This document shows, piece after piece, positions 3,252 through 49,200 of a DNA stretch of 64,000 nucleotides (positions within the stretch are counted from its first letter, which is position 1; the number at the start of each line of letters is the position of its first letter). A program made the translations under genes and the position numbers. A model generated the notes under the pieces. It was not told the DNA's origin. It worked only from the letters and a program-made list of their open reading frames with translations, and searched no databases. This DNA comes from an uncultured Armatimonadetes bacterium (GTDB taxonomy: Bacteria; Armatimonadota; Hebobacteria; Hebobacterales; Hebobacteraceae), in the NCBI GenBank assembly GCA_963716175.1, contig OY970296.1, positions 1,472,001 through 1,536,000 of the forward strand. Direction: 5' to 3'.

Positions 3252-3252
3252 A

Positions 3253-19973: not shown

Positions 19974-19997
19974 GCCTCGCTCCCTTCGCCTGTGCTT

Positions 19998-20539: not shown

Positions 20540-21562
20540 TCAGGGCGAGGATTCGCCGGTTCGTTGTCGCCTTTGCCGTCCTGCCCCTCCTGATCGCTTG
20601 GAGGCTGCGGGAACCGGCTGATCCGACCCTCGGACCGCGACAACCTGGTGCATCTTGATGAATGCAGCCCCGCGATGGTTCTCGATTATCTTGATAGCTG
20701 GCGTTTGGGTAAAGGTGTGCGTCGCTGCATGGAACACAGAGAGAACCAGGTCCTGCAGTTTCTGGTCGTCTTCCAAGTTCCGCACGGTTAGACCGATTTC
20801 CAACGCCTCATCCCGCGAGATATGTCGAGAATGGCTTTTGTACCGGCTGTGATTGGCGAGGGTCCCCGCTGCTCGCCGCGCTTTCTCTTCTGCATCCGCG
20901 GAGCCAACGAACATGTAGGTCTGCAGCCAGGACCTGACAAGCTCCTCAGAAAGGTTCTGTGCGTTCTTGCACTGCATCAGGAGCGCCGGACCATACTGCT
21001 CCAGAATCGGAATCCATGAGCCGAGCCTATCGGGGTCTCTGCACTCCTCCTGGGCATACCGGAACTGGTCGAGGATCGCTTGGGCCGGTGCCTGGACGAA
21101 GCCAGTCGGGGAGCCCATGAGCATCTGCGGATCGACGGGACCCAGGAAGGAATGCTTCCCCATGTAGATGGAGTCTGCACCGCACACCAACATGGTTGCC
21201 GCTGACATCGCCAAGGAGGGCACGAATGCGCGGATGTGCTTGAAGCGGGACCTGAGGTAGCGCATTACGGCATCCGCCGCCTCTGGCGAGCCCCCAGGGC
21301 TATGAATGATCAGATCGAGTTCATCGGTGTCAATCTCGTGTATGACCTCCATCATGCCCTGGAGGTCTTCATCGGTTATGGTCAGAAACTGGGGTCCGAT
21401 CTCCGGGTGCTGCGTGAAGGCCGTGGCGTAGAGGATAACTGCTCGCCCCGTGTGCTTATGAAGCAGCGAAAGGTACTTGCGTCGGACAACGTCCTGAGCA
21501 GACTGACCGTTCGTCGGGTGCGCCTTACCTATCTCTTGGAGCAACTCCCCCCACGTCGGCAT
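20540..21562 (-). CDS. SDH-family ClpP-fold serine protease
   Basis: 'DLIIHSPGGSP', 'AMSAATMLVCGAD', 'LGPVDPQ', 'SHSRHI', 'KIIEN'. Confidence 0.88.
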   Translation of the reverse strand: MPTWGELLQEIGKAHPTNGQSAQDVVRRKYLSLLHKHTGRAVILYATAFTQHPEIGPQFLTITDEDLQGMMEVIHEIDTDELDLIIHSPGGSPEAADAVMRYLRSRFKHIRAFVPSLAMSAATMLVCGADSIYMGKHSFLGPVDPQMLMGSPTGFVQAPAQAILDQFRYAQEECRDPDRLGSWIPILEQYGPALLMQCKNAQNLSEELVRSWLQTYMFVGSADAEEKARRAAGTLANHSRYKSHSRHISRDEALEIGLTVRNLEDDQKLQDLVLSVFHAATHTFTQTPAIKIIENHRGAAFIKMHQVVAVRGSDQPVPAASKRSGGAGRQRRQRTGESSP

Positions 21563-21785: not shown

Positions 21786-22754
21786 TTGCAGGCCCCTCCT
21801 GTCCGTTTTCCGGCCATTCTATAGTAACTGGTTCCGGTCCTCTCGGCAACCCAAAGAGCCCACACCGCGTCATCAGGGCCGCCCGTAGTCTATGCGCCCG
21901 CCGCCGCGTCAACCCGCCTCTGCCGGGCCACGGAGGCCGCCAGCACGGGAACCGCAGGAACGTTACGAGCCTGGTGCGAAGGTTGACTATCCCAAGGCCC
22001 TGTCAGTGGGAAATCTCCCGGCGTGTTCAGCCACACGCACATGCTCGTCGGGATCGTCGCGGCCGCGGGTTAGGGGCTGCGGCTCAGCATCGCAGAGTCG
22101 TGGGAGCAATGGCCATATCCGCCGCTCGCGAGCGCCGGGCACTATCCCCTCCTCCTGCACCCACTTGGCCATCGTGCCCCCGGCCCCCCTCGCCGAGTCG
22201 CACAATGGGCTATGCCTGGAAAGCGGCCGTCTCCTACACTCGAGCGCGATCGTGTCAGCACCGCTTGTACACTCCCCAAATCGCCGAAGTAAAATGCCCC
22301 ACCCTCGGTAGCCCGACGGTGAGAGTAAGGCGCACTCAAGAGGCATTACAGCGGGAAGAGGTTATAGCACTAACCTCTTGATTGCTGTAACCTGTTGGCG
22401 GGCCAGAGTGAACGCCAGGCAGGAACAGGAAGGCTCTGCGGCACACTGGCCCACCCGCGGACGCTGCAGATAGGCCGAGGGGCATCTGTGCTCTCCACGC
22501 AACGGTAGACCAAGACGCAGGGTCCACCCACAGGCCGCGCGTGAGACCGCAGGCTCGCGTTGTCGGCCGCCGGGTTAGACTGTACCACGCGTAGTCGCCC
22601 CATCTGTACCACCTGATGTTCGGGGGTGGGTACCACCCCATAGTCGGGGGTGGGTACCACCCGGCCGCCGGGGGTGTGGACCACCCCTGAGGCGGTGCTG
22701 GGTCGTTGCCACAAAGAATCCCCTTCTGACCTGGGAGACCGGTCAGGAGGAGAC

Positions 22755-24296
22755 ATGGAGCGACTCAGCGTGCATCTCATCGTGGACATCGTGTATCGGT
22801 TGCGACGCGGCCAGTCCGTGCGGGCGATCTGTCGGGATCTGGGACACTCCCGGGGGACGGTCCGCCGCTATCGGGAGCTGGCGAAGCGGAGAGGCTATCT
22901 GGACCCTTCCCGGCCCTTGCCCGAGCCGGGAGAGGTGCTGGCCCAGCTGGAGCCAGCCCTCTCGGCCCCGGGCAGCAATGTCTCGGGCGTGGAGCCCTAT
23001 CGGGAAGTGGTGGCGGGGCTGCTGGAGCAGGGGGTGGAGATGGTGGCGATCCACCAGCGGCTGGGCCGCCACCATGGCTACCAGGGCAGCTACAGCTCGG
23101 TGCGGCGCTTTGTGAGGCGGCTGCGGCCCCGGCACAAAGAGGTGGTGGTGCGGATCGAGACGCCGCCCGGCCAGCAGGCGCAGGTGGACTTCGGCGGGGC
23201 CGGCAAGATGCGGGACCCAGCCACGGGGAGGCTGCGGCAAGCCTGGTGCTTCGTGATGACACTCTCCTACTCCCGACACCAGTATGTGGAGTTCGTCTTC
23301 GACCAGCGGATGGAGACCTGGATCGGCTGCCACCGGCGCGCCTTCGAGAGCTTTGGGGGCGTCCCCAAAGAGCTGGTGGTCGACAATCTCAAGGCGGCGG
23401 TGCTGCGGGCGGCGCTGGATGATCCCCGGCTGGCGGAGCCCTACCGGAAGCTGGCCCAGCACTACGGCACCCTGGTGCACCCCTGCCGGCCGGGCATGCC
23501 CCAGCACAAAGGCAAAGCCGAGAATGGGGTGCACTACGTGCAGCGCAATCTCCTCGCCGGCGAGGGAGAGCTGGACCTGACCCAAGCGAATCGCCTGGCG
23601 AAAAGCTGGGTGCTGGAGGTGGCCGGCGTGCGTGATCATGGCACCACGCACGTGCCGCCCCTGCGGCGCTTCCGAGAGGAGGAGCAGGCCGCCCTCTTGC
23701 CCCTGCCCGAGGAGCCCTTCTCCCTGCGGGAGGTGCGTTCGGTGACGCTGCACCGGGACTGCCACGTGCAGGTGGAGGGCAGCTACTACTCGGCTCCCTT
23801 CGCCTACGTGGGCCAGCGACTGGACGCCTACCTCTACCAGCACACGGTGCAGCTCTATGACGGGGTGACGCTGCTGGTGACTCATCCTCGCGCGATTCGC
23901 CCCGGCCAGCGGATGACCAAGCTGGAGCACTACCCCGAGGAGAAGTCCTTCTATCTGATCCACACCCGGGAGTACTGCCAAGCGCAGGCGGGGCGGATTG
24001 GGCCCCACTGTGGGCAGGTGGTCAAGCAGCTCTTGGAGGAGCGGCCCCTGGATCGGCTGCGCAGTGTCCAGGGGCTGCTGGGGCTGGCGCGGCGCCACTC
24101 GCCGGCGCGGCTGGAGGCGGCCTGTGCCCGGGCCCTGCACTACGGCGATGCCAGCTACCGTCGCCTCAAGCGCATCCTGGAAGCGGGCCTGGACCAGGTG
24201 CCCCTGGAGCCGGGGTCGGTTCAGCCCCAGTTGCGCCTCTACGAGTACGCCCGGCCCATGAGCGCGTTCTTCGGCGAGGAGGCGGGCACATGCTGA
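22755..24296 (+). CDS. istA: IS21 transposase IstA
   Basis: HTH; 'ETPPGQQAQVDFG', 'VVDNLK', 'KGKAENGV'; AGGAGG RBS. Confidence 0.95.
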   Translation: MERLSVHLIVDIVYRLRRGQSVRAICRDLGHSRGTVRRYRELAKRRGYLDPSRPLPEPGEVLAQLEPALSAPGSNVSGVEPYREVVAGLLEQGVEMVAIHQRLGRHHGYQGSYSSVRRFVRRLRPRHKEVVVRIETPPGQQAQVDFGGAGKMRDPATGRLRQAWCFVMTLSYSRHQYVEFVFDQRMETWIGCHRRAFESFGGVPKELVVDNLKAAVLRAALDDPRLAEPYRKLAQHYGTLVHPCRPGMPQHKGKAENGVHYVQRNLLAGEGELDLTQANRLAKSWVLEVAGVRDHGTTHVPPLRRFREEEQAALLPLPEEPFSLREVRSVTLHRDCHVQVEGSYYSAPFAYVGQRLDAYLYQHTVQLYDGVTLLVTHPRAIRPGQRMTKLEHYPEEKSFYLIHTREYCQAQAGRIGPHCGQVVKQLLEERPLDRLRSVQGLLGLARRHSPARLEAACARALHYGDASYRRLKRILEAGLDQVPLEPGSVQPQLRLYEYARPMSAFFGEEAGTC

Positions 24297-25060
24297 CCCA
24301 TCCCCTCTTGCCCAAGCTCAAGGAACTGCGGCTCTCCGGGATGCTCCAGAGTCTGGAGGAGCGGTCGGCGCTGGCTCAGGAGCAGCAGCTTTCCCCAGTG
24401 GAGTTCCTGGCCCTGCTGATCGAAGACGAGCTGGAGCGGCGCCATCAGCGCACTCAGGCGCGCCGCCAGAAGCAGGCCGGCTTCGAGTACCTCAAGACCA
24501 TCGCCGACTTCGACTTCGCCGCGGTGCCCACGCTCGATAGGGCCTTGGTGCTGGACATGGCCACCTGCACCTTCATCACGGCCAAGGAGAACTGGTTGAT
24601 CTGCGGCCCGACCGGCGTGGGCAAGAGCCACCTGGCGACGGCCATCGGCTACGAGGCGATCCGGCGGGGGATGAAGGTGCTCTCCTTCGCCACCCACCGG
24701 CTCCTCGCAGAGCTGCTCGCGGCGCGGGCCGACGGGACCCACCACAAGCTGCTCGCCAAGCTGGCCTCGGTGGAGCTGCTCATCATCGACGACTTCGGGC
24801 TGCGGCCTATCAGTGTGCAGGGAGCGGAGGATCTCTACGAGCTCATCGCTCGCCGCTACGAGCGCGGCTCCATCCTGCTCACCTCCAACCGCTCCCCGTC
24901 GGAGTGGACGGAGGTCTTCGGGGACGCGCTCTTGGCCTCTGCCGCGCTGGACCGGCTCACCCACCACGCCCGCCTGACCGTGATCACCGGCGAGAGCTAC
25001 CGCCAGCGCCATCGCCGAAAGGAGGTGAAGCCGACTCCCAAACCGACGAGAAAACAGTGA
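24290..25060 (+). CDS. istB: IS21 helper ATPase IstB
   Basis: 'GPTGVGKSHLA', 'LLIIDDFG', 'LTSN', 'LDRLTHH', 'GESYR'. Confidence 0.96.
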   Translation: MLTHPLLPKLKELRLSGMLQSLEERSALAQEQQLSPVEFLALLIEDELERRHQRTQARRQKQAGFEYLKTIADFDFAAVPTLDRALVLDMATCTFITAKENWLICGPTGVGKSHLATAIGYEAIRRGMKVLSFATHRLLAELLAARADGTHHKLLAKLASVELLIIDDFGLRPISVQGAEDLYELIARRYERGSILLTSNRSPSEWTEVFGDALLASAALDRLTHHARLTVITGESYRQRHRRKEVKPTPKPTRKQ

Positions 25061-25610
25061 TCGTCGATCACTGCCCGCAACGACCCGGAATCACGAAAAG
25101 GTGGTACCCATCAGGCGGCGGCCGGTGGTACAAATGGGGCGGCTATTGACACGCGTCAGCGGCATGGCCGATACAGCGGAGGGCGTTGCTGGGAAGCGGA
25201 GAGGCAGTGAGTCTGAGCGTGGCAGCGCGACCGCGCAACCACCGGAGTGGGCGCCCGCCAAGCTCGGCACCCCTATGCGTCGGTTGGGGGCGGCGGCCCG
25301 CATCGCACTGATTGGCACACTGCTGGCGAAGTGGTCACATGTGCGGCTGCGGTGTGTGGGAGGGAGAGGGCGCAGGGCGGCCGCGCTCGTCGAGGTTGCG
25401 GGCCGGTAGCGCGGCCAATTCGGAGACAGTCCCTGTTTTGACGGCGCGCTGGCTGTGCGCGGGAGGGAAGCACGGAAGGCGCGAGATGGTGAGGGTTGGG
25501 CTAGCACCCTGAGAGGAACGACAAGGCATCCTCGACGCGGCCGCGTCTCTGGTACCTCTGACCCACTTGATGGCACTAGCAGGGATTCAGGCCGATGCAG
25601 CAACGCGACC

Positions 25611-31774: not shown

Positions 31775-31910
31775 TTGGCCGTGTCTCCCCTCTCATGCCT
31801 CACCCGTCCGCCAGGCCGCCATAAGATGTCGACAGTCTGGCCGGACTCTCTGGGAGCCCTGCTCTCGCTCTCATGGCGATGGGTTCACTGAGGTTGTCGC
31901 CAGTCCTGCC

Positions 31911-32051
31911 ATACAGGACGGTCTCCGGCGCTTTCGCGTCGTCGGGCACGAAGTCGCGCAGTTCGTTCGTGGGGATGTTCGCGCGCTTGTCTTTGTGGCG
32001 CACCGACTCGACGGGGGTTGAAGCCTTCTCCTTCCTGGACTTCCCAGGCAT
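31911..32051 (-). pseudogene. Type III Mod N-terminal remnant
   Basis: 'VESVRHKDKRANIPTNELRDFV.DD..AP.TVLY' matches the N-terminus of the Mod at 41515. Confidence 0.85.
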
Positions 32052-32052
32052 C

Positions 32053-33684
32053 TCAGAGGTCCCCCTTTAGCTCCGCTAGGAACTCGTTGCCCGCAATGGC
32101 GAGGTGGTCCGCTCTCTGCGCTAACCACTCGTCGTATCGGCTGACCTCCGTGGCGGCGATATCCTCGTCTATGAACTGCTGGGCTAGCTTCTGCGGCGTG
32201 ATGCTGTAGTGGCGGATGTAGTCCATCGGGTCTTTGGCAGATATCCGGATGTTGATGTTCGGGCCGATGACAGCGATGTTGGCCAGCGCGTCGATCTTGT
32301 CTTCGCTCACCTTCTTGTGAAGGAACTTGCGGGGGAAGACGTGATGCCATTGTGGTCGGAAATCGGCGAGCACCTGGAGGCCCTCGAAACCGAGTCGATG
32401 GCCCTTGTCATCCCAGTCGGTGGCCCCGTTTCGGTAGGCGAGCAGGTAGAGGAGGAATCTGCCGAACCGACTGTCTCCGTAATCACGAAGGAAGTCTTCG
32501 GAGTTAAGAGAGTGTTCGTGGTCGAAGCGTTTCAGAAGCCGGCGAACCGTCATCTCTGCCGAGTCTGATTCGGCGATGTCACGGAGGTCTTCCTCAAGGG
32601 AGGTAGAGCCTGATCCGCTGTACCTGCCGAAGCGGGATGCCTGTAGGAACCAGTATAGCGTCGGCTCAAACCTGGCGTTGGGGAACTTCTCCAGCAGGGC
32701 GACGAGCGTTACCAGTGCGGCCTCGGTTGGCATGGGATCGCTGCTAAGAATGCCGTATTGCCGCAGCCGAGCAATGGCATCAGCCCATGCCTTCTCCGTT
32801 CGCTCCCATGCTGGTCGGACGTTCTTCTCGTGCCAAAATGTGTCTGGGATCTCCCGGAACCTGACACGTTTGATACCGACGGCTGTCATCGTGCGGAAGA
32901 GGAGGTTCGGCCCTATGTCAAACCCTGCATCGGCTAGGATGCCGAGGTGTGGCAGGAAAGTGCTGCGGACCCAGCCGGGATTCCGGGCGGCGACGATGCC
33001 GAGGTAGATGTCGGCCTCAGTGACTCGGGTGCCCCTGCTGTTGAGGCGAGAGAAGATCTCAACGACGTCCTCAAGCTCGTGGTCAACGGTGACGGCGACG
33101 ACGTCCTTCTCACGAATCTTTCGAACACTGTCCAGCCTGGTGTAGACCTCCATCGCATCCATGCCGTCGCACAGGCCGTCGGTCTTGACGCTTTTGGCCA
33201 GCTGCATGAGTGCTTTCTGGTCGTCCTCTTTCTGGGTGTCAAGGATGAGCAGTGTGGGTAGCAGTACATAGCGATTGGTCTTCACGGAGCGGATGGCGGC
33301 ATTGGCAACCAGAAAGAACGGCGGTTCCTTGGCGTGTACGTCAAACCGGATGTCGTACTTGCGGAGGGTGCGGTTCCATTCCTGGGCGCTATCCCACCAG
33401 AAAGGCTTCCGTCCGAAGAGGATGCACAGAGCCGTGGTCCTCTGCTGACCATCCACGATCCACACGGATGGAGGCTGAGCGTCAACAGCGAGCTGGGGCT
33501 CCACTTCGCCGTTGCTGCTCCAGAGGAGGAAGCTGTTGATCGGGAAGTCGTACCAGAGGGATTCGGCAAGGTCCTTCACCTGGGTTGGTTTCCAGACGAA
33601 GCCCCGCTGGAACTCGGGCACGCTCCAGATGTGGTTCACGGCAGAGTTGACGATGTCTCTGGTCTTGAAGGATGTGTAGGCCAT
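32053..33684 (-). CDS. DUF262 (GmrS-like) protein with C-terminal HNH-like domain; GmrSD-type restriction candidate
   Basis: 'PEFQRGFVW', 'VDGQQRTT', 'IFSRLNSRG', 'HHVFP...N....N'. Confidence 0.88.
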   Translation of the reverse strand: MAYTSFKTRDIVNSAVNHIWSVPEFQRGFVWKPTQVKDLAESLWYDFPINSFLLWSSNGEVEPQLAVDAQPPSVWIVDGQQRTTALCILFGRKPFWWDSAQEWNRTLRKYDIRFDVHAKEPPFFLVANAAIRSVKTNRYVLLPTLLILDTQKEDDQKALMQLAKSVKTDGLCDGMDAMEVYTRLDSVRKIREKDVVAVTVDHELEDVVEIFSRLNSRGTRVTEADIYLGIVAARNPGWVRSTFLPHLGILADAGFDIGPNLLFRTMTAVGIKRVRFREIPDTFWHEKNVRPAWERTEKAWADAIARLRQYGILSSDPMPTEAALVTLVALLEKFPNARFEPTLYWFLQASRFGRYSGSGSTSLEEDLRDIAESDSAEMTVRRLLKRFDHEHSLNSEDFLRDYGDSRFGRFLLYLLAYRNGATDWDDKGHRLGFEGLQVLADFRPQWHHVFPRKFLHKKVSEDKIDALANIAVIGPNINIRISAKDPMDYIRHYSITPQKLAQQFIDEDIAATEVSRYDEWLAQRADHLAIAGNEFLAELKGDL

Positions 33685-33699
33685 TGTCTCGCCGATCTC

Positions 33700-33813
33700 C
33701 TATGGTTTCTGCGCGACGAAAGCTCGGATAAGGTTCTTGCAGTTCCACGGATCCTCGATCTCAAGGAATGCCCAGCGACCAAAGCCCCGATGGTTGCTCA
33801 CCGCCGGCACCCA
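33700..33813 (-). pseudogene. Type III Res C-terminal remnant
   Basis: Translates to WVPAVSNHRGFGRWAFLEIEDPWNCKNLIRAF.., matching the Res C-terminus WVPAVNNHGGFGRWAFLEIDDPWDAKNAIRSF. Confidence 0.85.
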
Positions 33814-34259
33814 GGGGAGTCGCCCCGCCGATCTCGGGACAGAGCAGTGGTAACCCAGCAAGAAGCGGTAGCTCCCCCTCGGTGGGTCTGTTCGACGGAG
33901 CCCTCAGCGACCCTCTAGCTCCACGTCACTTAGCCATCAATCAGCACCAACCTGCCCTCCCGTTCCGTTACGTCTATTGGTGGTAGCAGATCAACGGCCT
34001 GTCGGTACTGCGCGACGACTCGATCCTGATGCCGCCACCGCGGATATAGGTCCTGAATGACCTGAATCTCTTCGATCCTCACTTCTTCGCTTGCCATAGT
34101 AGCTCCACTATGAAGGAATCCGCCGACGTGGTGATCGAGTCGTTTTGCACCTGTCCCCCGCCGGATGGGCGCCCCCCACCAGCGGCCCGGCCGCGCTCGG
34201 AATCGCGCAGCCAGGCCTCTACCGCCGCCAGCACTTGCTTGTGCATGGCGACGGGCCGG

Positions 34260-34703
34260 CTATCCTGGTCGGGCCGCGCCGGTGAGCTTGTCGAGCGCCG
34301 CCGAGAGCCGCGCAAAGCCCGCTCCCTTCATGTCTAGGCTGTGAGACGCCGCCCCGGTCAACTCCGCGCTGTGCATGTCGCGTTGGCCCAGGTACTGCTT
34401 GCCCAACCAGATCTGCATGGTCGTGTTGCCCGCCTTAGCGTTCTTCCACTGGAGGCGGCGGAGGGAGGTTTTGCCTTCCTCACGCCCCTTTTCATAGGCA
34501 TTCAGAAACTCGAGATCGCTCTGCTTCCGCGCCACGATCAGGGCAGGGGAGACGTGCAGTGCAGCAGCGATCTCCGCGTCCGTGCATTGGATACGGGCCA
34601 GGTCCTCGACCAGTTGGGGATCGAGTTCCTTGCGGGGCCGGCCGCTTTTCCGTCTTGGGGCTGGTGCCTTGGGGGGTTTCTTCTTCGGCTTGCGAGCTGT
34701 CAT
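34260..34703 (-). CDS. Terminase small subunit-like protein of the island
   Basis: 'GRPRKELD...CTDAEIAAALHVS...SLRRLQW..A..GNTTMQIWLGKQYLGQRD' pattern of phage TerS-like proteins. Confidence 0.7.
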   Translation of the reverse strand: MTARKPKKKPPKAPAPRRKSGRPRKELDPQLVEDLARIQCTDAEIAAALHVSPALIVARKQSDLEFLNAYEKGREEGKTSLRRLQWKNAKAGNTTMQIWLGKQYLGQRDMHSAELTGAASHSLDMKGAGFARLSAALDKLTGAARPG

Positions 34704-34816
34704 GGTCCCACCTCTTCGGCCGGCCGGGCACGTTCCCACTCGGCCAGCCACCTCTCCACCTGGGCGTCAGGGCTCGCCTCAGGGTCCTCGGCGGCCGCTG
34801 GGGCCGCCGCCTGCTC

Positions 34817-35224
34817 TTAGTGGTCACGGCAGAAGTCCGAATCCCGCAGGGGCGCGTAGGCGTAGGGCCGGCCGTCCTTCCGCAAGCCGGCGCAGGTCAA
34901 TCCCTGGTAGGGTCGGGGTTCGCGCTCCGGCAGCACGGGCCACTCCCCGCTCGCCACTGGCAGGCAGGTCGGCGGCGGTGCCCCGAAGGGGTCCAGATCC
35001 AGCGCCTCGGCCAGTAGGAAGATCACCCGCCACCAGCCCCGGCGCCGGCCCTCTTGTTCCGGGTCGCGCCGGGCCGCCCGCGCTTCGTCGGTGGCCACCA
35101 ACGCCAGCTCCCGCAACCGGGCCAGCAGCTCCTCCGGCGCCTCCTCGGGGTCGCGCAGCCAGGCCTCCACCTGCGCCACCGCTTCCCGCAGCACCAACAG
35201 GTCCGTTCTCTGTGCGCTGCTCAT
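34817..35224 (-). CDS. Hypothetical protein with C-terminal C..KDG...C..H finger-like motif
   Basis: 'TCAGLRKDGRP...FCRDH'; lies in the replication operon. Confidence 0.5.
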   Translation of the reverse strand: MSSAQRTDLLVLREAVAQVEAWLRDPEEAPEELLARLRELALVATDEARAARRDPEQEGRRRGWWRVIFLLAEALDLDPFGAPPPTCLPVASGEWPVLPEREPRPYQGLTCAGLRKDGRPYAYAPLRDSDFCRDH

Positions 35225-35338
35225 GCCAACAGCTCCTCGGCCTCCGGCGCCAGCCCCAGGAGGCGTACACACCGGGGCGTGGGGCTGCGCTCCCCGAAGG
35301 GAGCAGCCTTCACGCCTACGGGGTGGCCTCCCGCCGCC

Positions 35339-35564
35339 TGCCGACGTTCCCAAGTCTGCCAACGTGTCTGCCAACGTTTGTTCCCAAGACCATGGCAAGC
35401 AGACTCTCTCTTTAGGGGGGTCTTGCCATCGTGCCAACGTTCGGGCGGTTTTCGCCCAGGTTCCCCGCTGGCATACCTAGAAGGCATTTCGCCCCTACGA
35501 AGGGCCTTGCCAACGTTCTCCGCCGTCATTCCTGCCATCGTTCCTGCCAACGTCCTGCCATCGT
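35339..35564. repeat. Iteron array, putative replication origin
   Basis: Nine copies of TGCC(A/G)(A/T)CGT at 35339, 35357, 35369, 35424, 35432, 35508, 35533, 35545 and 35556, directly after the helicase stop. Confidence 0.75.
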
Positions 35565-35566
35565 TC

Positions 35567-36994
35567 CTATGCTGGGAGGCCAAAGACGGCCTCCTTCCCC
35601 TGCTTGCTGCGCCGAAGCCGGTCAGTCTTCTGCAACTCAGCTAGCGCGTCCCCGAAGGTGCGTTTTGAGATACGCTGCTTGCCGCAGGCACCCTCCAGGA
35701 ACTCGCGGGTCCGGGGTTCGCTCTCCGCTGCGGCCAGTATGATCTCCTGGGCGAGCAACTTCTTGGTGACTTTCTCGGGTTCGGCCTCGCCAGCGTAGAC
35801 CAGCTCGGCCCCGCCGTTCTCACCCCCCTGCCACTCTACCAGGAAGGGTCTGGCCGGGTCGCCCCAGTAAGACTTGACGACCTCGCAACGTACCAGCCCA
35901 TCCTTCTCCTGCCAGGCGGCAAGGGCGACATCGGCCACGTTCACAATTGCAGTTGCTCCCCTGATCCTGGCCTTAGGGCTGTTGTCGCCGAACTCGGTGC
36001 GCTTCTTGAAGTGGTGGATCACGAGAATACAGCACTCAAACCGCTCGGCGATATCGCGGAGCGCGCCCAGCACCTCTGCCATTGCATCATTGTCGGTGTC
36101 CTTCGTGCCGGGAGGCAGTAGGCGACTCAGTGAGTCTAGGATCAGCAAAGCGGGACGCTGATCCTCCACCAAGGAAGCCACCCAGGTCGGGTTCAGCTTC
36201 GCCGGCCTGAACTGGAAATCAACCCTCGGGGCCCTGCCAGTGGCTTTCCTGAAGTCCTTCACCCTCTTCCCTGTGTACCGGCGCCCGCGCTCCGCGTCGA
36301 TGTAGACACAGGGGCCGGTCCGGCTCGGCGCGAACTGCGCCTGTCCCAGCCACGGCAGGCCCCGCCCGACCGCATCGCCCAACGAGGTGCCCAACCAACC
36401 CTTTCCGGCCCCGCCCTCGCCGGCCAGGACGACCAGCCCCGCATCCGGGAGTACCCCTTCGACCAGCCAGGAAGGCTTGTCCGGGTCTTCGAGCAAAGCC
36501 TCGGCAGGAACGAGATCGGCAATCGGCAGGGCCCGCCTGGTCGCGGCCTCCACCAGTGACTTGACCTGGGTGACAACCGCCCCGATTCCGTCATCACCGG
36601 GGGACTGGGCCAGCTCGCGGATTTCGCCTGCGGCCTGAATCAACTTCCGCAGCGCCGCCTTCTGAGTCACGGTGCGCGCCCAGTGGGTGACACCTTCCGC
36701 GGTAGGCGCGTCCTCTTGCAGGGCGAGGAGGTAGGATGTGCCGCCGACAGCCTCCAGCTGGCCCAGGTCCCGGAGCCGGACCTCAATCGCGATGAAGTCG
36801 GCCGGTGTTCCCTCCTCGCGCAGGTCGGCGATAGCGGCAAAGATCATCTGGTGCTGCGGACTGTAGAAGTCGTCGCGCTCGAGCACCGCCAGCGCCTTGG
36901 TCACCGCCCGGTGATCTATAAACATCGCACCCAGCACGGCCTGCTCGGCCTCCAGGCTTTGCGGGGGGATGCGCTCCAGCAACGGCGCGCTCAT
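35567..36994 (-). CDS. DnaB N-terminal domain plus AAA_25 (RepA-like SF4) helicase / replication protein
   Basis: 'PPQSLEAEQAVLGAM...DFY..H..IF.AI' DnaB-N; Walker A GEGGAGKG; 'LILDSL'; 'IHH'; 'RGATA'. Confidence 0.88.
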   Translation of the reverse strand: MSAPLLERIPPQSLEAEQAVLGAMFIDHRAVTKALAVLERDDFYSPQHQMIFAAIADLREEGTPADFIAIEVRLRDLGQLEAVGGTSYLLALQEDAPTAEGVTHWARTVTQKAALRKLIQAAGEIRELAQSPGDDGIGAVVTQVKSLVEAATRRALPIADLVPAEALLEDPDKPSWLVEGVLPDAGLVVLAGEGGAGKGWLGTSLGDAVGRGLPWLGQAQFAPSRTGPCVYIDAERGRRYTGKRVKDFRKATGRAPRVDFQFRPAKLNPTWVASLVEDQRPALLILDSLSRLLPPGTKDTDNDAMAEVLGALRDIAERFECCILVIHHFKKRTEFGDNSPKARIRGATAIVNVADVALAAWQEKDGLVRCEVVKSYWGDPARPFLVEWQGGENGGAELVYAGEAEPEKVTKKLLAQEIILAAAESEPRTREFLEGACGKQRISKRTFGDALAELQKTDRLRRSKQGKEAVFGLPA

Positions 36995-37183
36995 GGCGCC
37001 ACCCGCCCGGCCGCTCGAGCCGTCCAGCCCGTGTCGGCCGCCGCACCCGGGAATCTCCCTCCCCCACTTGCAGGAGGCGCCGCCGGCGTGGTAGACTGGA
37101 CTTGAGAGTGTCTCGTCACGTCGTCCTGCCTTTTGCCCGCCTACCCTGGACCGGGGTGGCGGGCTTGTCTTTCGGATTTCACA

Positions 37184-37408
37184 TCACGCCGCCTCCACGG
37201 GCACGTCCACCGTGGGCCGGCTCCATAGGCTGGGATTCTCAAGCAGGCGCCCAAGCGCTAGGACCGGCACCCGCATCTTCCCTCGCAGGCGGATGACCGG
37301 TAGGTGCCCAGCCTTGGCGGCTCTGTAGCCCCAATTCCGCGCGAACCCGAGGACCGCCGCAGCCTCCGGGATACTGATTGTCTCGCAATCGTTCGCTGCC
37401 ATGGCCAC
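37184..37408 (-). CDS. Excisionase/AlpA-like HTH_17 protein
   Basis: 'ISIPEAAAVLGFARNWGYRAAKAGHLPVIRLRGKMRVP'. Confidence 0.8.
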   Translation of the reverse strand: MAMAANDCETISIPEAAAVLGFARNWGYRAAKAGHLPVIRLRGKMRVPVLALGRLLENPSLWSRPTVDVPVEAA

Positions 37409-40962: not shown

Positions 40963-41522
40963 TGGAGACCACCGAGCGGATTGTCGAGGCGTATGTGCGC
41001 TACGTCAAGGGATGGGCGACCATACCTAACATCAAGTGCAAGGGCCAGTTTGAGATCGACCTTCTGGCCGTAGACCCGGTCACGGGACGGAAGTACCACA
41101 TCGAGAGCGGCGTCCACACGAGTTCCGGCTTCAGCAAGCTGACATGCAATCCGTTCAGCGAGGAAGCTCTGAAGGTCAGGGTAGAGCAGCCCAAACAGCG
41201 GCGCACGCTCGGGTTCTTCCTGGAGCGGAAGTTCGGCGCTCCAGAGATCACTGAGAAGCTGAAGGAGTACGGCTTCGAGGACGGCAGGTACGGCAAGATC
41301 ATCGTATCGTGGGGGTGGACGGACGAAGCAGCCGAACAAGCGCGTGCGGCCGGCATAGACCTCTGGGACTTCCGTGGTCTCCTCTCTCAGATCGGAGAAG
41401 CGTTCATTGGCAGGAGCACCTACTTCACCGACGACACGCTGCGAACTCTACAGCTCTTCGCGCGCGCGTTCATAGAAGGTGGGTTCCACCGCGCTGCCGG
41501 AAGGGTGACCGAAGATGCGTAA
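40962..41522 (+). CDS. PD-(D/E)XK-like nuclease-fold protein between res and mod
   Basis: 'ERIV...EIDLLAVD...HIES' pattern; overlaps both neighbours. Confidence 0.6.
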   Translation: METTERIVEAYVRYVKGWATIPNIKCKGQFEIDLLAVDPVTGRKYHIESGVHTSSGFSKLTCNPFSEEALKVRVEQPKQRRTLGFFLERKFGAPEITEKLKEYGFEDGRYGKIIVSWGWTDEAAEQARAAGIDLWDFRGLLSQIGEAFIGRSTYFTDDTLRTLQLFARAFIEGGFHRAAGRVTEDA

Positions 41523-44414
41523 CTCAAAGAAGCGGAGGCCCGCCACCTCCGTCGAGTCCGTTCGCCACCAGGATAAGCGGGTCAACATCCCCACCACCGA
41601 GCTGAGTGCATTCGTGGCCGATGACGAAAGGGCGCCGCGGACCGTGCTCTATCCCCGCGATCCCTCCCTCGATCCCCAGCTCGTGTGGCGAGGCAAAGAC
41701 GAGCAGGATGGCGAGCCGCTGGAAGTGCCGGCCGTTCCCGTCTACATCCAGGAGAAGATTCACCCGCAGGCGCTGATCGAGAACCTGCGCGAGACCGCCC
41801 GGGCGGGAGAACAGGAGCCTGAGCTTCGCCTCTTCGACGACTTCAACGGCATCTACGACTTCGAGCGCAAGGTCGAGTTCTACCAGCACCCCATGAACTG
41901 GTCGAACCGGATGATCCTGGGCGACTCCCTCCTGGTGATGACCTCGCTCGCCGAGAAGGAAGGCCTCAAGGGCAAGGTCCAGATGATCTACCTGGACCCT
42001 CCCTATGGCATCCAGTTCGGCTCCAACTGGCAGGTCAGCACACGCAGGCGGACTATGGTCGACGGGAGGATCGAGGACGCCACTCGCGAACCGGAGCAGA
42101 TCAGGGCCTTCCGCGACACCTGGAAGCTGGGCATCCACTCCTACCTCGCCTACTGGCGCGACAGGCTCATGGTGGCACGCGACCTCCTGACCGAAACCGG
42201 TTCCATCTTCGTCCAGATCGGGGACGAGAACTTGCATCTCGTCAGATCGCTGATGGACGAGGTTTTCGGAAGTGAGAACTTCATCGCCTTTATCCCATTT
42301 CGCAAGAAGACGATGCCGTTGGGTGCTAGGTACCTGGAAGGGATCTCCGATTACCTGCTCTGGTATGCAAAGGCCAGAGATCTGGCGAAGTACAGGCAGC
42401 TGTACATTCAGAAGACTGCTGAGGGGGATACCCACTGGGACCGGGTCGAACTCCCTGACGGCACGCGCCGCAAGATGACTCGGGAGGAGATCGCAGATCA
42501 CGGGCTGCTACCCGTAGGAGCCCAGCCTTACCAACTGATCGCGCTGTATCCGGTCGGCATCAATGCCAGTGGTCTCTTCGAGGTGAAGTTTGACGGTGTC
42601 CCTTATGCTCCGCCCAGAGGGAAGAGTTGGCTGACCAGCCCGGAGGGGATGCGCCGTCTCATTCGCGCCAACCGCATCGAGCCGTATGCTGGTGGCGCCA
42701 CGATAAGGTACGTGCTGAAACTCGGCGACTACCCGCACAGCCCACTGACAAACCTATGGGCGGACACATCTGCACCCACGGATATGACATACGTGGTAGA
42801 GACAAACCGCAGAGTCATTGAACGATGCCTCCTGATGACGACCGACCCTGGCGACCTTGTGCTTGACCCAACCTGTGGTAGCGGTACCACCGCCTACGTC
42901 GCTGAGGAGTGGGGGCGACGATGGATAACGGTCGACACGAGCCGCGTGGCGCTCACGCTCGCCCGTACGCGGCTGATGTCGGGCCGATACCGCTACTACC
43001 TACTGGCCGATTCCCCAGAAGGCGCCGGTAAGGAATCCGAGATCACGGGGCAGCCACCCCCAAGTCAGTCTGCCAGCACGAAGGGCGACATCCGTCGCGG
43101 GTTCGTCTTGCGACGCGCGCCCGGATCGCACGCGAATACATCGCGAACAACGAGGAGATCGACACAGTTGATGCCCGTTGGCAGGAACGGCTGGAGCCGG
43201 TGCGCACGAAGCTCAACAGGGCGCTGAAGCAGAACTGGGAGGAATGGGAGGTCCCGCGCGATGCCGATGACAGGTGGTCGGCCGAAGCCATTCGCCTGCA
43301 CGCGGAGTGGTGGAAGTTGCGCAGAGAGCGGCATAGGCAGATGGAGGGCTCCATCATGCGCCACGCCGACACCGGGTTTCTCTGCGACCGACCCTACGAA
43401 GACAGCAAGCGCATCCGGGTGAGCGGGCCGTTCACTGTCGAGAGCCTGTCGCCCCACCGAGTGCTCTCGACCGATGAAGAGCGCCCGACCTCCGAGGCCG
43501 AAGCGGAGGCGGCCGGCGGCCCGCGCCAGTTCGAGACCATCGTCATCGAGAACCTGCGGAAAGCCGGCGTCCAGAACACCGTGAGGCAGGAGCGGCTGAA
43601 GTTCGAGCGGCTCGAGGCCTTCCCTGGCGTCTACGTGCAGGCTGCTGGCGAGTACCTGGAGGGAGAGCAGCCGCGGCGGGTGGCCGTGTGCATCGGACCC
43701 GAGTACGGCACGGTCGGCCCCGATCTCGTCCGCGAGGCGGCGAAGGAAGCCGTCCAGGGAGTCGGGTTCGACCTACTCCTGGTCTGCGGCCTGGCCTTCG
43801 ATCCCCACGCCGGTGAAGCGGCCCGCGAGTTCAACCCCGAGCGCGGTGGGCGCCACGATGACTTCGCGGTCGCAGAGGCGGCCAAGCAGTACGGCAAGCT
43901 GCCAGTCCTCCTGGTGCGCATCAACGCCGACCTGGCCTATGGAGACGAGTTCCTCAAGCGGACCGGCGCCGGCAACCTGTTCATGATCTTCGGCGAGCCG
44001 GATGTGGAGATGCGGCGCGCGGACGACGGCAAGCTCATCGTGGAGATCAAGGGCGTGGACGTCTATGACCCGACCACCGGCCAGATTCGAAGCCACACCA
44101 CCGACGACATCGCTTGCTGGTTCATTGACACCAACTACGACGGCGAGAGCTTCTTCGTTCGCCACGCCTACTTCTGCGGCGACGACGAGCCGTATGAGAA
44201 GCTCAAGCGCGCCCTGAAGGCCGAGATAGACGAAGCCGCCTGGGCCACCCTCTACTCCACCACCTCCCGCCCCTTCGACCGCCCCGCCACCGGCAAGATC
44301 GCCGTCAAAGTCATCAACCACTACGGTGACGAGGTGCTGAAGGTGTATGAGGTGGATGCCGGCGCCAGCGGCTCAGACGCTGGAAGGCCTCGTGCAGCTC
44401 GCGGGCGAGGCTAG
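41515..44414 (+). CDS. mod: Type III DNA methyltransferase Mod (single-base frameshift near 43122)
   Basis: DPPY and DPTCGSGTT motifs; the ORF track splits it into 41515-43227 and 43200-44414; continuity FVLRRAP/RIAREYIANNEEID needs one extra C at 43120-43122. Confidence 0.88.
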
Positions 44415-44419: not shown

Positions 44420-46246
44420 ATGCTCGTTCGCCCTTCCGGGAACATCAGTCTCGGCTGGAAGCTCGATGATCCACTGAACATGGTCCTTGTCCAGCCATTC
44501 TACGCGATTGAGCCAGGTGGGAGCAACGCTTTCGCGCTCGATCCACAGTCGGCAGCACGTCAGCGGCTAACAATCGGAACCGTCCTGTCGTTCCTGAGCG
44601 ATTCAGATGGGCGGGTACCCCACTTGTTCAGACAAGTCCGCTTAGTAGTGCTACCTGAGTTCTCGGTTCCATATGACATGGTGCAGCAAGTCGTCGACCG
44701 GATGAGCGCGACGCGTCCAGGGATGCTCCTTGTGGCTGGGATAGAGCGTCAAAGCCTTCAGCAATATGGGTATCTCGTCGAGACGTACGTTACCGACGGC
44801 GCCTTCCGAGAGCAGGAGATCGATAAGCTCACACAGCACAACAATCCGGCGCGGAATTGGGTCAATGCCGCCCTAGTCGCGTGGAGAGACGGCGTTGGGA
44901 CCCCCGGTGTGCTCTTCCAGAGGAAGATCTGCCCCAGCAACCTCGAGTCCCAGACTCTGTGCACTGGCGATGTCATTCATACGCTACGAGTTGATGGTGC
45001 ACTGTTCGGCTTCGCAATATGCTCGGATCTTCTAGATGCAGATCCCCCGCCTCCAGAGCCCCCGATATCAGTTGCCCAGCAGATATGCGAAGGGTGCGTC
45101 GACTCTCCGCTGGACGTTCTCGTCCACGTGCAGTACAACCCGAAGCCACGACATACGACAGTCGGTGCGGGCACACACACACTTCTAACCAATCTGGCTA
45201 CCAGGGATGCTCTGGTAGTACGAGTCAACAGGGCGGCATCCTGCGAGGAGCACTCCGAGTACGGCGTGAGTGGCGCAGTTGTGGGCCGGCATCGAAGTTT
45301 CGGTGATCCTCCTGAGTGTTGCTGTGTCCGTGACGAAAACGATATGCGATGGTACGATATGAGGCCACAGCGGGCATGCGCGTTCCTTCTGCAGACGTAC
45401 CTGCCAAGTGCGGTTGAGGGGCCGCAGGTTCCGGCCGGACAGCAGCCGGTTCGATACGCGCTCTGGCTACCCACGCCTAATCCTGACGACGACATCAACT
45501 TCACACTCCCTAGGGCGGCAAGTCCCGAGCCGCGCCGCTTCGGGGGATGGCGCGCCTTTGAATGGAAGCCGTGGTCGAAACCAGGCAGGGACCTGCTCAA
45601 GCCGACCGGGGACAATGAAGATCTCCATAGCTACCTCAAAGAGAAATACCAGGAACTCCGCCGGGCAGTGTGGGGAGACAATGGACGCTGCCTTTCGCTG
45701 TGGGCAGAGAAGGCAGTCCAATTCCACGCTGACACCATTCAAGACTGCCCCGATCATTGGCACATCAGAGGGGTGACCGAAGCACTTCGCAAGCTCGTTG
45801 CCGGCATGACACTCATCCATGCCGGCCCCGGGCTAGCTCCCATCGAGTGGACCGACGGAGTGCCACCGAGGGCCGCCATGAGGTTCGCCGGTGCCTTGGC
45901 TGCCAGCGTGCACTGCCGTGATGCTGCTTCGTTGCGGTGGCCTGCCATCAAGGCACGACTGGTACCGGACGCCCAATCAGGCGCTTCCCACAAAGACTGG
46001 TATGTCGTGTCGAATGCTGGAGGGCATCCTTGTGCTGAGGCCCTTCCATACGCCGGCTTGGTGCATCCCGCCGCAGCAACTTACGGTGTAGCCGCTGAGG
46101 GCGCTGATCCAAGGAGCGTGGCGGTTCCATGTGTCCTGGCAGTGCCAGTTGGAGAGCTCGAGGACAGAGTGTTGGATGCCGCGGGCGTCACACGCGGGAC
46201 GGTCGCCGAAGCGGTGCTGGCTATCGAGGGTTGTGCTGGATGGTGA
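44420..46246 (+). CDS. Nitrilase (carbon-nitrogen hydrolase)-fold effector with C-terminal domain
   Basis: E-K-C triad motifs 'LVVLPEFS', 'QRKICPS', 'ICSDLL'. Confidence 0.7.
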   Translation: MLVRPSGNISLGWKLDDPLNMVLVQPFYAIEPGGSNAFALDPQSAARQRLTIGTVLSFLSDSDGRVPHLFRQVRLVVLPEFSVPYDMVQQVVDRMSATRPGMLLVAGIERQSLQQYGYLVETYVTDGAFREQEIDKLTQHNNPARNWVNAALVAWRDGVGTPGVLFQRKICPSNLESQTLCTGDVIHTLRVDGALFGFAICSDLLDADPPPPEPPISVAQQICEGCVDSPLDVLVHVQYNPKPRHTTVGAGTHTLLTNLATRDALVVRVNRAASCEEHSEYGVSGAVVGRHRSFGDPPECCCVRDENDMRWYDMRPQRACAFLLQTYLPSAVEGPQVPAGQQPVRYALWLPTPNPDDDINFTLPRAASPEPRRFGGWRAFEWKPWSKPGRDLLKPTGDNEDLHSYLKEKYQELRRAVWGDNGRCLSLWAEKAVQFHADTIQDCPDHWHIRGVTEALRKLVAGMTLIHAGPGLAPIEWTDGVPPRAAMRFAGALAASVHCRDAASLRWPAIKARLVPDAQSGASHKDWYVVSNAGGHPCAEALPYAGLVHPAAATYGVAAEGADPRSVAVPCVLAVPVGELEDRVLDAAGVTRGTVAEAVLAIEGCAGW

Positions 46247-49200
46247 GCTGGAAAGGCGGCTGGAGATGAGGAACGCTTACAGCAGTTCGGTGTTGGAGGC
46301 ACTCGAAGAGACACTCGTACCCCGCGTCCCAGGCATGAAGCGGGAGAGGAACCTAAGGACAGAACTGCTCGACGCCGTGTACTCATTCTGGTCTGGAGTC
46401 ATAGGCGTCCAGGTCTGCGAGACGTGGGACGAGCTGAGGAGCCGGTGGGAGGACTCTCAACATGAGCTGGGCGCACTCATGCGCACTCGTCGGATTGCCC
46501 GCGGCTGGGGCAATGACGCATACCTCCTGTTCCTTGTGAACCAATCGGCTCTTACATCAGCCGGTGAACAGGCTGTCAAGCTGCTTAGGAGCATCGAGAT
46601 CTCCCCGTTCGAGTGCCTCAAAGAGGTCGTGCCTCTCGATGCGACATGGCGAGACGAGCTGGGTGCTCTCACTTTCGTACCTCTACAGGAGGAGCATCCA
46701 GGAGTGCCCGACCGAGCCAGCACGGCAGTGCGGGAGCTTCTGGAAAGCCTCGGAGTTCATCCTAGTCTGGCCCGCGACCTAACTATGTTCAGGCCGGGAG
46801 TGGACGCGGTGGTACAGGCGCTTGTGGAGGACCGTTACGGTGAACCGCCAGGGTCTGTCCGAGTCCCGGAAGTCACATCTGTCGCGAGCGCCCGGGGAGT
46901 GACGGAGCGCGCTGTCACCCCTCTCCCTCGGACCGCGGCGCGGGTGCGTCTCAAGCGACTGGTTCTGGAGCACTTCAGGAGCTTCGGCACCCCATCGGCT
47001 CCAGTCGAGCTCGATTTGTCTGGTGACCTTACCCTAGTCTACGGCGAGAACGGAACTGGGAAGACCTGCCTTGCGCAGGCGATCGAGTGGGCAATCTGTG
47101 GCGACGTTGGATCTCTGTCTGAGGCCGTACGGAGGGAGGGGATTGGGGCCGGCCGAGTGGTTCGGAGCATGTGGGCACAGGGCGAGAAGGCCGCAGTGCG
47201 GCTGGAGCTTTCCAAAGGCGGGCCGTTGGACTGCGTGGAGAGCGTGGGGGGCGCTCGGCGCTTCAGAGGTGTGTCCCGGAAGGAAGAGATGCTTTGGCGC
47301 GACCTCCTGGGCATTGGGCGGAGGTACAAGACAGAGCGGCATGAGCTTGTACGCGACCGAGTGAGAGCCGGCCTGATGTTACTGCAGAGGCAGATGAGCC
47401 ACCTCCTGTTGGTGAACTCTGAGGAGCGTCTGGGGCAGTTCGCCGCGTTGCTTGGAGAATCGACTCTGGCTCGTACGACAAGCAAGCTGACTAGCACGAA
47501 CCGTGAGCTTGGCCGCCAACTCGAGCAGCGGAATGAGAGCGGCGCAGCTTCCCGAGACCGTCAGAGATCCCTCCGCGATGAACGGAGCAACATGGTAGCC
47601 GAACTGTCAACTGGAATCGCAGGAATCGGCTCTGCTCCGACCCTGCAGGAGTACCTCGGCCGCGCTCGCGACTACCATGTCGCGGCAGACATCAGCATCC
47701 CGGCCGGGTTGGCTCGACCTCAGACTGACGAAGCAGCAGAGGTCGCTGTGCGCAGGGTCGTGGAACAGCTCGAGGAGCGCAGAGCGTCTCTCGTGGGTGC
47801 CCTGGAGCGCACGAAGCGCGTGGGTGAGTGCTCCAAGCAGCTGGCATCGGCAAAGGCGCAACTCGCTCAGGCCGAAGAGGCCTTGGTGAAAGCCCGAACG
47901 GACCACAGAGATGCGGCGGCCAGGGCTGCCGAGCTCCAGCACGCACTTGAGCGCCTTGACCAGGAGATCGCCACTCTGCGTTCGACGCACCAGGAACGTG
48001 CTGAGCGTCGGCGCGCTCTGGAGCGATGGTTCGAACTCGAACCGCTGATTCGTAATCGGAGGGAACGCCTCGCCCAAGTGGCACACCGGATAGCAGCCTC
48101 GCGACAGGAAGTCGACCGTCTCGACAACGAGGTGAACGCAAGGAGCACGGCCCTGCACTCGGCACAGAGCAGCCTTGACGGGGCCAGCCGAGGGCGGGAT
48201 CAGGCCCAGGGCACTGTTCACAGACTGGAAGAGATTGCCGGCTTGCTCAGACGTCACGGCCAGCCTGACGCCCAGCGTCAGCGGCTTGAGGCCGGGCAAC
48301 GGCAGGCGACTGCATCTGCAAGGAGATGCCAGGAGGAGTTGGCGCGTGTAGTCCGGCAGCGGGACAACGCGGCGGCGGCCGTTTCGTCAACGGAGCTCAG
48401 ACTGAGTCAGCTTCGGAGCAGACGCGAAGACAGAGACCGCCTACTGCAGAGTCTCCGTGAGCACATTGACGGTGACGAGTGTCCCCTCTGCTCTCACAGA
48501 TACGAGAGTCGGGAGCGCTTGCTTGCAGCTATAGAGCACAAGATTGGGTCCCCGTCTGTTGATGAGCAGTCGCTGATGTCCCAGCTCGACCGAGAGAGAA
48601 CGTTGGTGGCCGAGTGCGAGCAACTAGTAACGGAGTGCGAGAGGGGAATGGTAGACGCAGAGCATAGGAAGGCCGAGGCGGCGGATGCAGCCGACCGGGC
48701 CGCCGAACTCACCAACACCTTCCTGACTATGCTCTCTGCGGCAGGGCTTTCGCCAGGCGCGTCGCTTGAGACTGTGTCGGATGAACTCGAGCGATGGCAG
48801 GAGTTCCTTGGCAGCGCGGAGTCAAAGGTATCGCAGCTTCAGCTAGCGCTCACAGCGGAGGAGCAGATGCTCCGGGAGGTGTCGGATCGCCGACGAGCTG
48901 CTTGGGACGAGATCGGGCGATTGTCTGGTGAGGAGAGAGAGCTGACGCAGCAGTTGGACGCGGCCGTTGCAGAGGTCACGTCGACACTCGGGGCACTGCC
49001 GCAGCACGATGAGGAACTCGCGCGTGAGCTCGAACAGGTGCGCATTGAGCAGCAGTCATCTGCAAAGCAACTGCAGCAAGCCGATTCTCAACGGGCTCGC
49101 ATAGCTCGCGATCTGGAGAATGGTCGCCAGACGCTCCAGGCATATGAGACAAGCACTCGGGTCGCCGAACAGCAGGCAGCTGAGCGTGGCAGCAACGTTG

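Follow-up and report, generated by a model that had tools for sequence, protein, structure and literature searches.

Mobile elements that lie inside a coding sequence and rebuild it on leaving are known from Bacillus, where the serine-recombinase elements skin (in sigK) and SPbeta (in spsM) are inserted within genes that are reconstituted by precise excision. Among phage satellites, the helper-embedded phage-inducible chromosomal islands (HE-PICIs) occupy late genes of their helper, most often the capsid gene; satellites embedded in this manner use the host prophage as their helper, and HE-PICI excision has been shown experimentally, as described by Tommasini, Mageeney and Williams (2023, PMC10111431). 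Phage-inducible chromosomal islands (PICIs) have a small size, with a median of 9.5 kb and none above 28 kb in the account of de Sousa et al. (2023, PMC10085698), and most satellites measure 8-18 kb (PMC9618062, PMC10085698). Serine recombinases occur in the PICI-like elements (PLEs) of Vibrio cholerae and in module 3 of the marine virion-encapsidated integrative mobile elements (VEIMEs); the length is about 18 kb in PLEs and does not exceed 16.8 kb in VEIMEs, and the text of Eppley et al. (2022, PMC9618062) reports none of them inside a helper capsid gene. Here we describe a 41,589-bp island in an uncultured Armatimonadetes bacterium (family Hebobacteraceae), located in a 64,000-nucleotide stretch of contig OY970296.1 (assembly GCA_963716175.1, positions 1,472,001 to 1,536,000; hereafter the window), which is a high-GC part of a 4.56-Mb single-contig genome. 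The island interrupts the major capsid gene of a phage-like head-tail cluster and carries a replication module, a gene of a terminase small subunit (TerS) family and many defence genes. A helper-embedded, satellite-like defence island is the most likely working model for this locus, if a tentative one; it is ranked first because the parts match the PICI core and the location matches that of HE-PICIs.

Ends of the island and the interrupted capsid gene

The features that define the two ends are as follows (window coordinates, strand, description).

7805-8947, plus: SU10-type major capsid gene (Pfam SU10_MCP, E 2.5e-69), native through the codons for ...ELRN (8879)
8873-8879, no strand: attL core CGGAACG, the left junction, inside the capsid gene
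8897-10366, minus: integrase of the large serine recombinase type, located at the island's left end (Pfam domains Resolvase, Recombinase, Zn_ribbon_recom; phrog_95 integrase, E 1.1e-90)
50076-50351, minus: 91-aa open reading frame (ORF) beside attR, possibly of ribbon-helix-helix type, a lead only (Atlas feature score 0.92-0.94; no Pfam match)
50462-50468, no strand: attR core CGGAACG, the right junction
50468-50503, plus: displaced capsid 3' end, ENAHGLLQGLA and stop, intact, matching ENAHG[LMV]... in 8 of 8 relatives

From the left, the capsid sequence of relatives can be followed up to attL. The two junctions share exactly 7 bases, CGGAACG, with identity stopping on either side, and these identical cores are spaced 41,589 bp apart, which therefore gives the length of the element. 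Around the core, the arms on the element side make up an imperfect inverted repeat that agrees at 14 of 25 positions, compared with a mean of 6.7 (sd 2.3, maximum 14) in 2000 samples taken at random places of the window. The serine recombinase is complete, possessing all three of its domains, and lies 18 bp from attL.

The insertion point falls within the last 12 codons of the capsid gene, between head and tail genes, so that 41.6 kb now stand between the head genes and those for tail and lysis. Past ELRN the interrupted ORF continues for 22 foreign residues, encoded on the antisense strand of the integrase gene, and thereby diverges from the capsid homologs with a readable end, all of which (8 of 8) terminate in ...GEYTLELRNENAHG.... 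The displaced 36-nt capsid end at the opposite junction shows no decay, and joining the two halves by in silico excision rebuilds the C-terminus conserved in all eight relatives, in agreement with the first-pass annotation of this DNA, made from the letters alone, which had placed the element in the capsid 3' end and predicted its restoration. Parts of 5000-13000 are matched by 20 public runs, in every case as short contigs, and no contig bridging attL was present among those listed for four public runs (1-20000), which consist of short contigs with cover of the element too thin to be informative.

The replication module and its TerS

The second group of features is a minus-strand operon that begins with a helix-turn-helix (HTH) gene.

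37184-37408, minus: excisionase/AlpA-type HTH (MerR-like HTH_17), 74 aa, first gene of the operon (Pfam, PHROGs)
35567-36994, minus: DnaB-N and AAA_25 (RepA/RecA-like) helicase, 475 aa (Pfam E 4.6e-29 and 3.5e-29; PHROGs DnaB-like helicase, E 1.6e-32)
35339-35566, no strand: iteron array, a putative replication origin, with 9 direct copies of TGCCAACGTTC-like 11-mers
34718-35224, minus: member of an unnamed ~205-aa family, interrupted by an in-frame TAA (34817-34819; 10 metagenome homologs)
34260-34703, minus: TerS-family gene, 147 aa, of phrog_309 type (HTH and a SLRRxQW...GNxxMQIWLGKQYLGQ block; phrog_309 'terminase small subunit', E 6.5e-12)
33930-34315, minus: two small ORFs of 78 and 55 aa, without family match in the Pfam and PHROGs scans

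The five parts named at first pass, namely the HTH, the helicase, the iterons, the small ORFs and the TerS-like protein, were all recovered on the minus strand by Pfam, PHROGs and repeat counts. The core genes share a coding GC3 signature of 0.76-0.80, and the HTH, the helicase, the nine iterons and TerS are intact and co-directional. As a phage-satellite toolkit, the name given to it in the first-pass annotation, the module has to be qualified: its parts are real, but they amount to only about 3.5 kb of a 41.6-kb mosaic rich in defence genes, and no primase domain was detected in the helicase.

The match of the HTH protein to Pfam HTH_17 is weak but consistent (E 8.5e-6; 26.4 bits, 0.6 under the curated cut-off of 27), and PHROGs places it with excisionases (E 5e-5). 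The iterons begin directly past the helicase stop codon, with 9 same-strand copies of TGCCAACGTTC at no more than 2 mismatches in 35339-35566. With at most 1 mismatch the window holds 7 matches, every one inside the 228-bp array, and 15 further matches, each with 2 mismatches, are dispersed across the remainder of the 64 kb. The only full-length relative of the helicase among 30 other genomes of the class (35% identical) is found in the complete genome of a sister genus, G011, in the unrelated context of HTH_31, MT-A70 and a helicase, and none was found in the viral scan. Candidate relatives at 25 metagenome loci were rejected as host DnaB genes because they match the DnaB N-terminal domain only.

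Between the iterons and terS, the profile match of the ~205-aa family continues through the in-frame TAA, and this gene is therefore truncated or dead. The position at which the family ends (~34718) fits the ATG at 34703 as the start of TerS. No relatives of the gene were found in IMG/VR or in 400 other genomes of the phylum. Two proposals for the small ORFs were dropped. The 78-aa ORF, considered as an end of the ~205-aa gene that insertion of terS had split off and displaced, gave weak matches, and the idea is refuted by the profile running through the TAA; the 55-aa ORF (33930-34097), considered as a cut-off ParB-like gene, had no Pfam match at E <=10 and no BLAST match to a ParB-methylase. 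Promoter, terminator and tRNA scans of the locus gave nothing useful.

The role of the TerS family is settled by genomic context, that is, by its position upstream of the terminase large subunit (TerL) gene. The island protein itself has no Pfam match at E <=0.01, and its 527 homologs are nearly all unnamed; it retains all 25 invariant columns of a 32-member family alignment. When 80 of at least 571 IMG/VR relatives were fetched and 8 with too little flank were set aside, the first downstream ORF (>=200 aa, within 1.5 kb) was a Pfam TerL in 63 of 72 loci. In species-representative genomes the same arrangement was seen in 17 of 28 loci (38 fetched, 10 without a candidate ORF excluded). The homolog in Psychrobacter phage pOW20-A overlaps the TerL start, that in a Pelagibacter phage lies 1.4 kb upstream of TerL, and the family pairs with TerLs of both the Terminase_3 and the Terminase_6 type. 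Judged by the phrog_309 match and this context, the ORF belongs to a true TerS family, and the earlier claim that the element has a TerS of its own stands.

Structural comparison had been proposed at first pass as a check. The AlphaFold (AF2) model of the island TerS (pLDDT 73) contains six helices in residues 29-104, and its best match by VIA-align among 48,161 chains is the TerS of phage Sf6 (3hef_A; Z 6.1 over 80 residues, rmsd 4.9, for the predicted model). This is the sole chain at Z >=5, and values below 8 may reflect a mere common helical arrangement; 2ao9 reaches Z 4.4, with a Foldseek E of 0.31. Among the predicted viral structures in BFVD, those annotated as TerS or phBC6A51-type give E values from 3e-6 to 9e-4, whereas against the PDB the sequence search returned nothing meaningful and Foldseek nothing at E <=0.001. 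The fold scores of this model are thus modest and count only as support for the TerS identity.

In the island this TerS is an orphan. No TerL lies downstream, where the two small ORFs without family are followed by a Res remnant, GmrSD and a Mod remnant, and the element ORFs scanned (about 35 against Pfam, 16 against PHROGs) gave no match to families of capsid, portal, TerL or tail proteins, in line with the first-pass statement that the element lacks such genes. A ClpP-like SDH-type serine protease at 20540-21562 of the island lies outside the PHROGs scan, and a prohead-protease origin is possible for it.

Combined, these parts suggest the following cycle for a helper-embedded satellite. A large serine recombinase would have placed the island in the last 12 codons of the capsid gene, and in the integrated state the conserved capsid C-terminus is exchanged for a foreign tail while the head genes are parted from the tail and lysis genes. 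On induction, the recombinase together with a directionality factor would excise the island, so that the capsid gene would be restored and the operon become continuous again. The excised circle may then replicate from the iterons with its own helicase, and the island TerS would mark island DNA for the TerL of the cluster or of another phage.

Cargo of the island and nature of the interrupted cluster

Most of the island consists of other genes, mainly defence cargo, among them the following.

18858-19973, minus: second integrase, tyrosine type, mid-element (Pfam; paralogs at 70-72% nucleotide identity in genomes G005 and G011)
22560-25152, plus: IS21-family insertion sequence (istA 22650-24296, istB 24290-25060; Pfam)
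31800-33861, minus: gutted second copy of a Type III restriction-modification (R-M) locus, a deletion scar adjoining the TerS module, with the three parts below
31800-32051, minus: N-terminal remnant of Mod
32053-33684, minus: intact GmrSD, between the Res and Mod remnants
33700-33861, minus: C-terminal remnant of Res, 42 residues
37891-44414, plus: Type III R-M locus with Res, a 186-aa ORF and Mod as two ORFs (Pfam, PADLOC)
44420-49979, plus: Lamassu-like pair (LmuA-like and LmuB/SMC-like; LmuB E 9.9e-65; Pfam)

Further cargo includes a PLD/DrmC-like nuclease, ParA, an HD protein and SLH proteins. The satellite-type module is flanked by inverted copies of one Type III R-M locus, the left of which is gutted, and the GmrSD gene of the gutted copy occupies the place of the 186-aa ORF in the intact one; to judge from this arrangement, the res-mod interval looks like a swap site. 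In the intact copy Mod is split into overlapping ORFs (41515-43227 and 43200-44414) that match the front and the back of one PADLOC MTase_III profile, which represents either a frameshift or a real split. A 21-nt direct repeat (12228-12248 and 16497-16517, identical at 20 of 21 positions) brackets a 4.3-kb block with the PLD nuclease and genes next to it; these repeats are possibly a small repeat family or cassette ends. Several copies of the IS21 element, 83-89% identical, are present in each of G011, G005 and G010.

The tyrosine integrase, which is accompanied by an S24 peptidase, raises the question of whether the HTH-helicase-iteron-TerS block is itself a nested element, perhaps moved by that integrase, or whether the TerS-like protein is instead a regulator or recombination directionality factor. 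Excisionase-type HTH proteins usually partner tyrosine integrases, and besides the presence of a second integrase, the inverted partial R-M copies on either side of the module speak for nesting. However, the tyrosine integrase lies 14 kb from the module, the context of the protein family is overwhelmingly TerS-TerL, and a repeat search gave no convincing pair of flanking direct repeats that would mark a second pair of ends, so that the separately bounded replication module named at first pass as a refuting case did not emerge. We consider this explanation quite improbable.

The nature of the presumed helper depends on the cluster that the island interrupts.

3477-4022, plus: the cluster's own TerS candidate, HTH_23 (Pfam; fold matches dominated by generic HTH, with the G20C small terminase at rank 24, Z 5.3)
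~3943-5262, plus: cluster TerL (Pfam, PHROGs)
50618-64000, plus: right part of the head-tail cluster, with an amidohydrolase, a GT4/GT2 glycosyltransferase, the tail tube (55142-56107), a large tail protein and an M15 peptidase

To the left of the element, the HTH_23 TerS candidate and TerL are followed by genes for an SPP1-type portal, a DUF1232 protein and a scaffold-like protein, and then by the capsid gene. On the right, the M15 peptidase gene extends to 64181, past the window, and ordinary host genes come next. Without the insert the cluster measures about 19.1 kb. Its TerL, portal, capsid, tail tube and lysin genes are intact and collinear with G011, in which the corresponding region (C1:2817278-2842523) has an identical gene order with 60-88% protein identity, and in which the capsid and amidohydrolase genes are adjacent. 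The radical-SAM and DUF366 neighbours of the right flank are common to G011, whereas the left flank differs. A TIR-STAND NTPase-TPR protein (832 aa, 619-3117) with a HicB-like ORF upstream adjoins the cluster on its left and is absent there in G011.

The cluster TerL was found in 11 of 14 other genomes of the family, representing 11 of 11 genera, with 66-78% identity in ten of the 11 genomes that hold it and 46% in G010; it is more conserved than trigger factor, which is 54-69% identical across the family. The capsid gene was found in 10 of the 14 genomes, the metagenome-assembled ones among them being incomplete. Scans of the cluster (3477-8947 and 50618-64181) revealed neither an integrase nor a repressor or replication gene. 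Because it is collinear in a sister genus, has its TerL in all 11 genera and yielded no such genes, the cluster looks like a vertically inherited, domesticated system similar to a gene transfer agent (GTA) and fits this description better than that of an inducible prophage, and its reading as a 'helper prophage' is not supported. In the literature searched, no report of a GTA-like cluster in Armatimonadota was found, the mentions being incidental. It is conceivable, although doubtful, that the cluster is a vertically inherited GTA-like particle system and the island its parasite, gating particle production and filling the particles by means of its own TerS. Under such an arrangement, one copy of the ~42-kb island would be enough to fill a head of normal size, without a concatemer or a shrunken capsid, and the domesticated terminase would package the island and its defence arsenal in place of random host DNA.

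Elements with the same TerS family are present elsewhere in the lineage. G011 contains about 7 diverged copies of one such element at ~85% nucleotide identity, and a single copy lies in the present genome (G000:C1:808848-829283). Their order is serine integrase, sigma-like gene, primase/polymerase, ParB-methylase, TerS, variable cargo and tyrosine integrase. Structural genes are missing in the annotated copies (2 of the ~7 in G011 and the one in this genome); TerL is absent as well, except that in one copy a remnant of it persists, fused to a BNR protein. Since terS is retained in these elements without structural genes, an orphan terS can arise by decay in this lineage, where the loss of all that lies past terS would be a common result.

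This last point weighs against reading the locus as a satellite within its own helper, and it does not stand alone. HE-PICI genes run co-directionally with the helper late genes, as they are described (PMC10111431), whereas the core operon of the island is antisense to the cluster, and with 41.6 kb the island is three to four times as long as known satellites and about twice as long as its cluster. Between the serine integrase and the HTH-rep-TerS module there are 27 kb, in which the second integrase and IS21 are found. A search of 400 other genomes of the phylum for related integrases in capsid genes, as the first-pass annotation had envisaged, yielded one relative (G004, 37% identity), which does not lie beside a capsid gene, and a second capsid-gene insertion was not found, the capsid end being intact in all 8 readable relatives. 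The cluster itself looks vertically inherited, and regulatory and replication genes were not found in its scans. The comparison of the two small subunits that had been proposed revealed no BLAST similarity between the island TerS and the TerS candidate of the cluster, and the cluster TerL shares no more than 26% identity with TerLs natively following this TerS family. Finally, there are signs of decay around the module: R-M remnants lie directly downstream of terS, the gene between the origin and terS has an in-frame stop, and Mod is split.

Alternatively, the island may be a decaying mosaic whose TerS is a relic, left over from a prophage with a serine integrase or from an integrative, plasmid-like element after structural genes were lost and defence genes accreted; the capsid gene would then be merely a chance target of the integrase, and the insertion would damage an old phage-like cluster. 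We regard this account as quite possible. In addition to the Res and Mod remnants that abut the module, the in-frame TAA of the neighbouring gene and the split Mod, it draws support from the IS21 insertion, from the heterogeneous GC content of the element (0.59-0.72 along its length), from the prophage-like elements without structural genes in G011 and elsewhere in this genome that end in a same-family TerS, and from the insertion being unique to this genome. On the other side, the integrase, HTH, helicase, iterons and TerS are intact, TerS keeps every family-invariant residue, and the displaced capsid end is undecayed. The repeated retention of terS without terL could equally reflect selection or use.

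The mismatch between the TerS family and the cluster terminase leads to another alternative, in which the island is a working satellite of some other helper, such as an infecting phage with a compatible TerL, and the capsid site serves as a safe harbour or disables a competitor. Relatives of this TerS are found widely in free phage contigs (the IMG/VR relatives counted above), the family pairs with both TerL types, the cluster TerL is only distantly related to the TerLs of the family, and regulatory genes were not found in the cluster, all of which would suit an external helper. Yet no candidate for it is known, and the precedent is the embedding prophage acting as helper itself (PMC10111431); we therefore consider an external helper unlikely. 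In favour of the helper-embedded reading are the intact, co-directional core, the complete integrase with its partly symmetric arms, the undecayed capsid end and its restoration in silico, the family identity of TerS, the HE-PICI precedent, and the cluster's own intact structural genes.

Comparison with described satellites and gene-interrupting elements

Should the island be packaged, the range of helper-embedded satellites would no longer be limited to the tyrosine-integrase PICIs of enterobacteria but would include a serine-recombinase element in a barely studied phylum, a satellite core would be able to carry a full-head-sized load of defence genes, and domesticated GTA-like particle systems may have parasites of their own. 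Even if it is inert, the locus provides a serine integrase whose natural attL and attR sites are defined and lie in a conserved capsid gene, together with a candidate GTA-like cluster in Armatimonadota.

The elements skin and SPbeta of Bacillus differ from the island in their targets, which are host developmental genes that are rebuilt in a terminal cell type, whereas the gene interrupted here is the capsid gene of a phage-like cluster. The resemblance to HE-PICIs, as these are described (PMC10111431), is closer. In both, an integrase, an AlpA-type regulator and a replication module with its origin are located within a late gene of a structural cluster, and the native form of the interrupted gene exists only after excision. 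However, HE-PICIs possess a single clade of tyrosine integrases instead of a large serine recombinase, are 10-20 kb long and occur in Enterobacteria, compared with 41.6 kb in Armatimonadota, and have integrase and AlpA adjacent, whereas the two lie 27 kb apart in the island. The 'helper' of the island furthermore has no recognisable prophage housekeeping genes, and excision is in this case an in silico result.

With PICIs and the related pathogenicity islands of Staphylococcus aureus (SaPIs), the island shares an integrase, an AlpA/MerR-type regulator, a rep gene with an origin and a TerS of its own, without other structural or lysis genes (PMC10085698). The principle in these satellites is that their TerS diverts the TerL of the helper. 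Four of the five PICI core functions given in the text of de Sousa et al. (2023) are present. An integrase lies at the end of the element, although of the serine and not the usual tyrosine type; a regulator of AlpA/MerR/Stl type is represented by the weak HTH match, and TerS is found without other structural or lysis genes in the scanned ORFs. The place of the primase-replicase is taken by the DnaB-N/AAA_25 helicase followed by 9 iterons, with no primase domain detected. Small size and a compact int-regulator-rep-terS order are not seen. The island also differs in having no capsid-morphogenesis gene and in the heavy defence cargo that separates its integrase from its core.

Integration by a large serine recombinase is a trait that the island has in common with PLEs and VEIME module 3, and some of the marine elements likewise carry TerS homologs and no capsid genes (PMC9618062). 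The first-pass annotation had considered a serine integrase, a size of about 42 kb and a capsid-gene site all atypical for known PICIs; this holds for the size and the integrase, whereas the capsid-gene site is known from HE-PICIs, and serine recombinases are known from PLEs. Both a satellite inside a helper capsid gene and satellites with serine recombinases are thus already in print. In the literature searched, no report was found of such a serine-recombinase island in an Armatimonadota capsid gene. Measured against the text of these papers, what is new is that a serine recombinase is combined with a head-sized and defence-loaded island, with a host from the Armatimonadota and with a seemingly domesticated cluster as the target.

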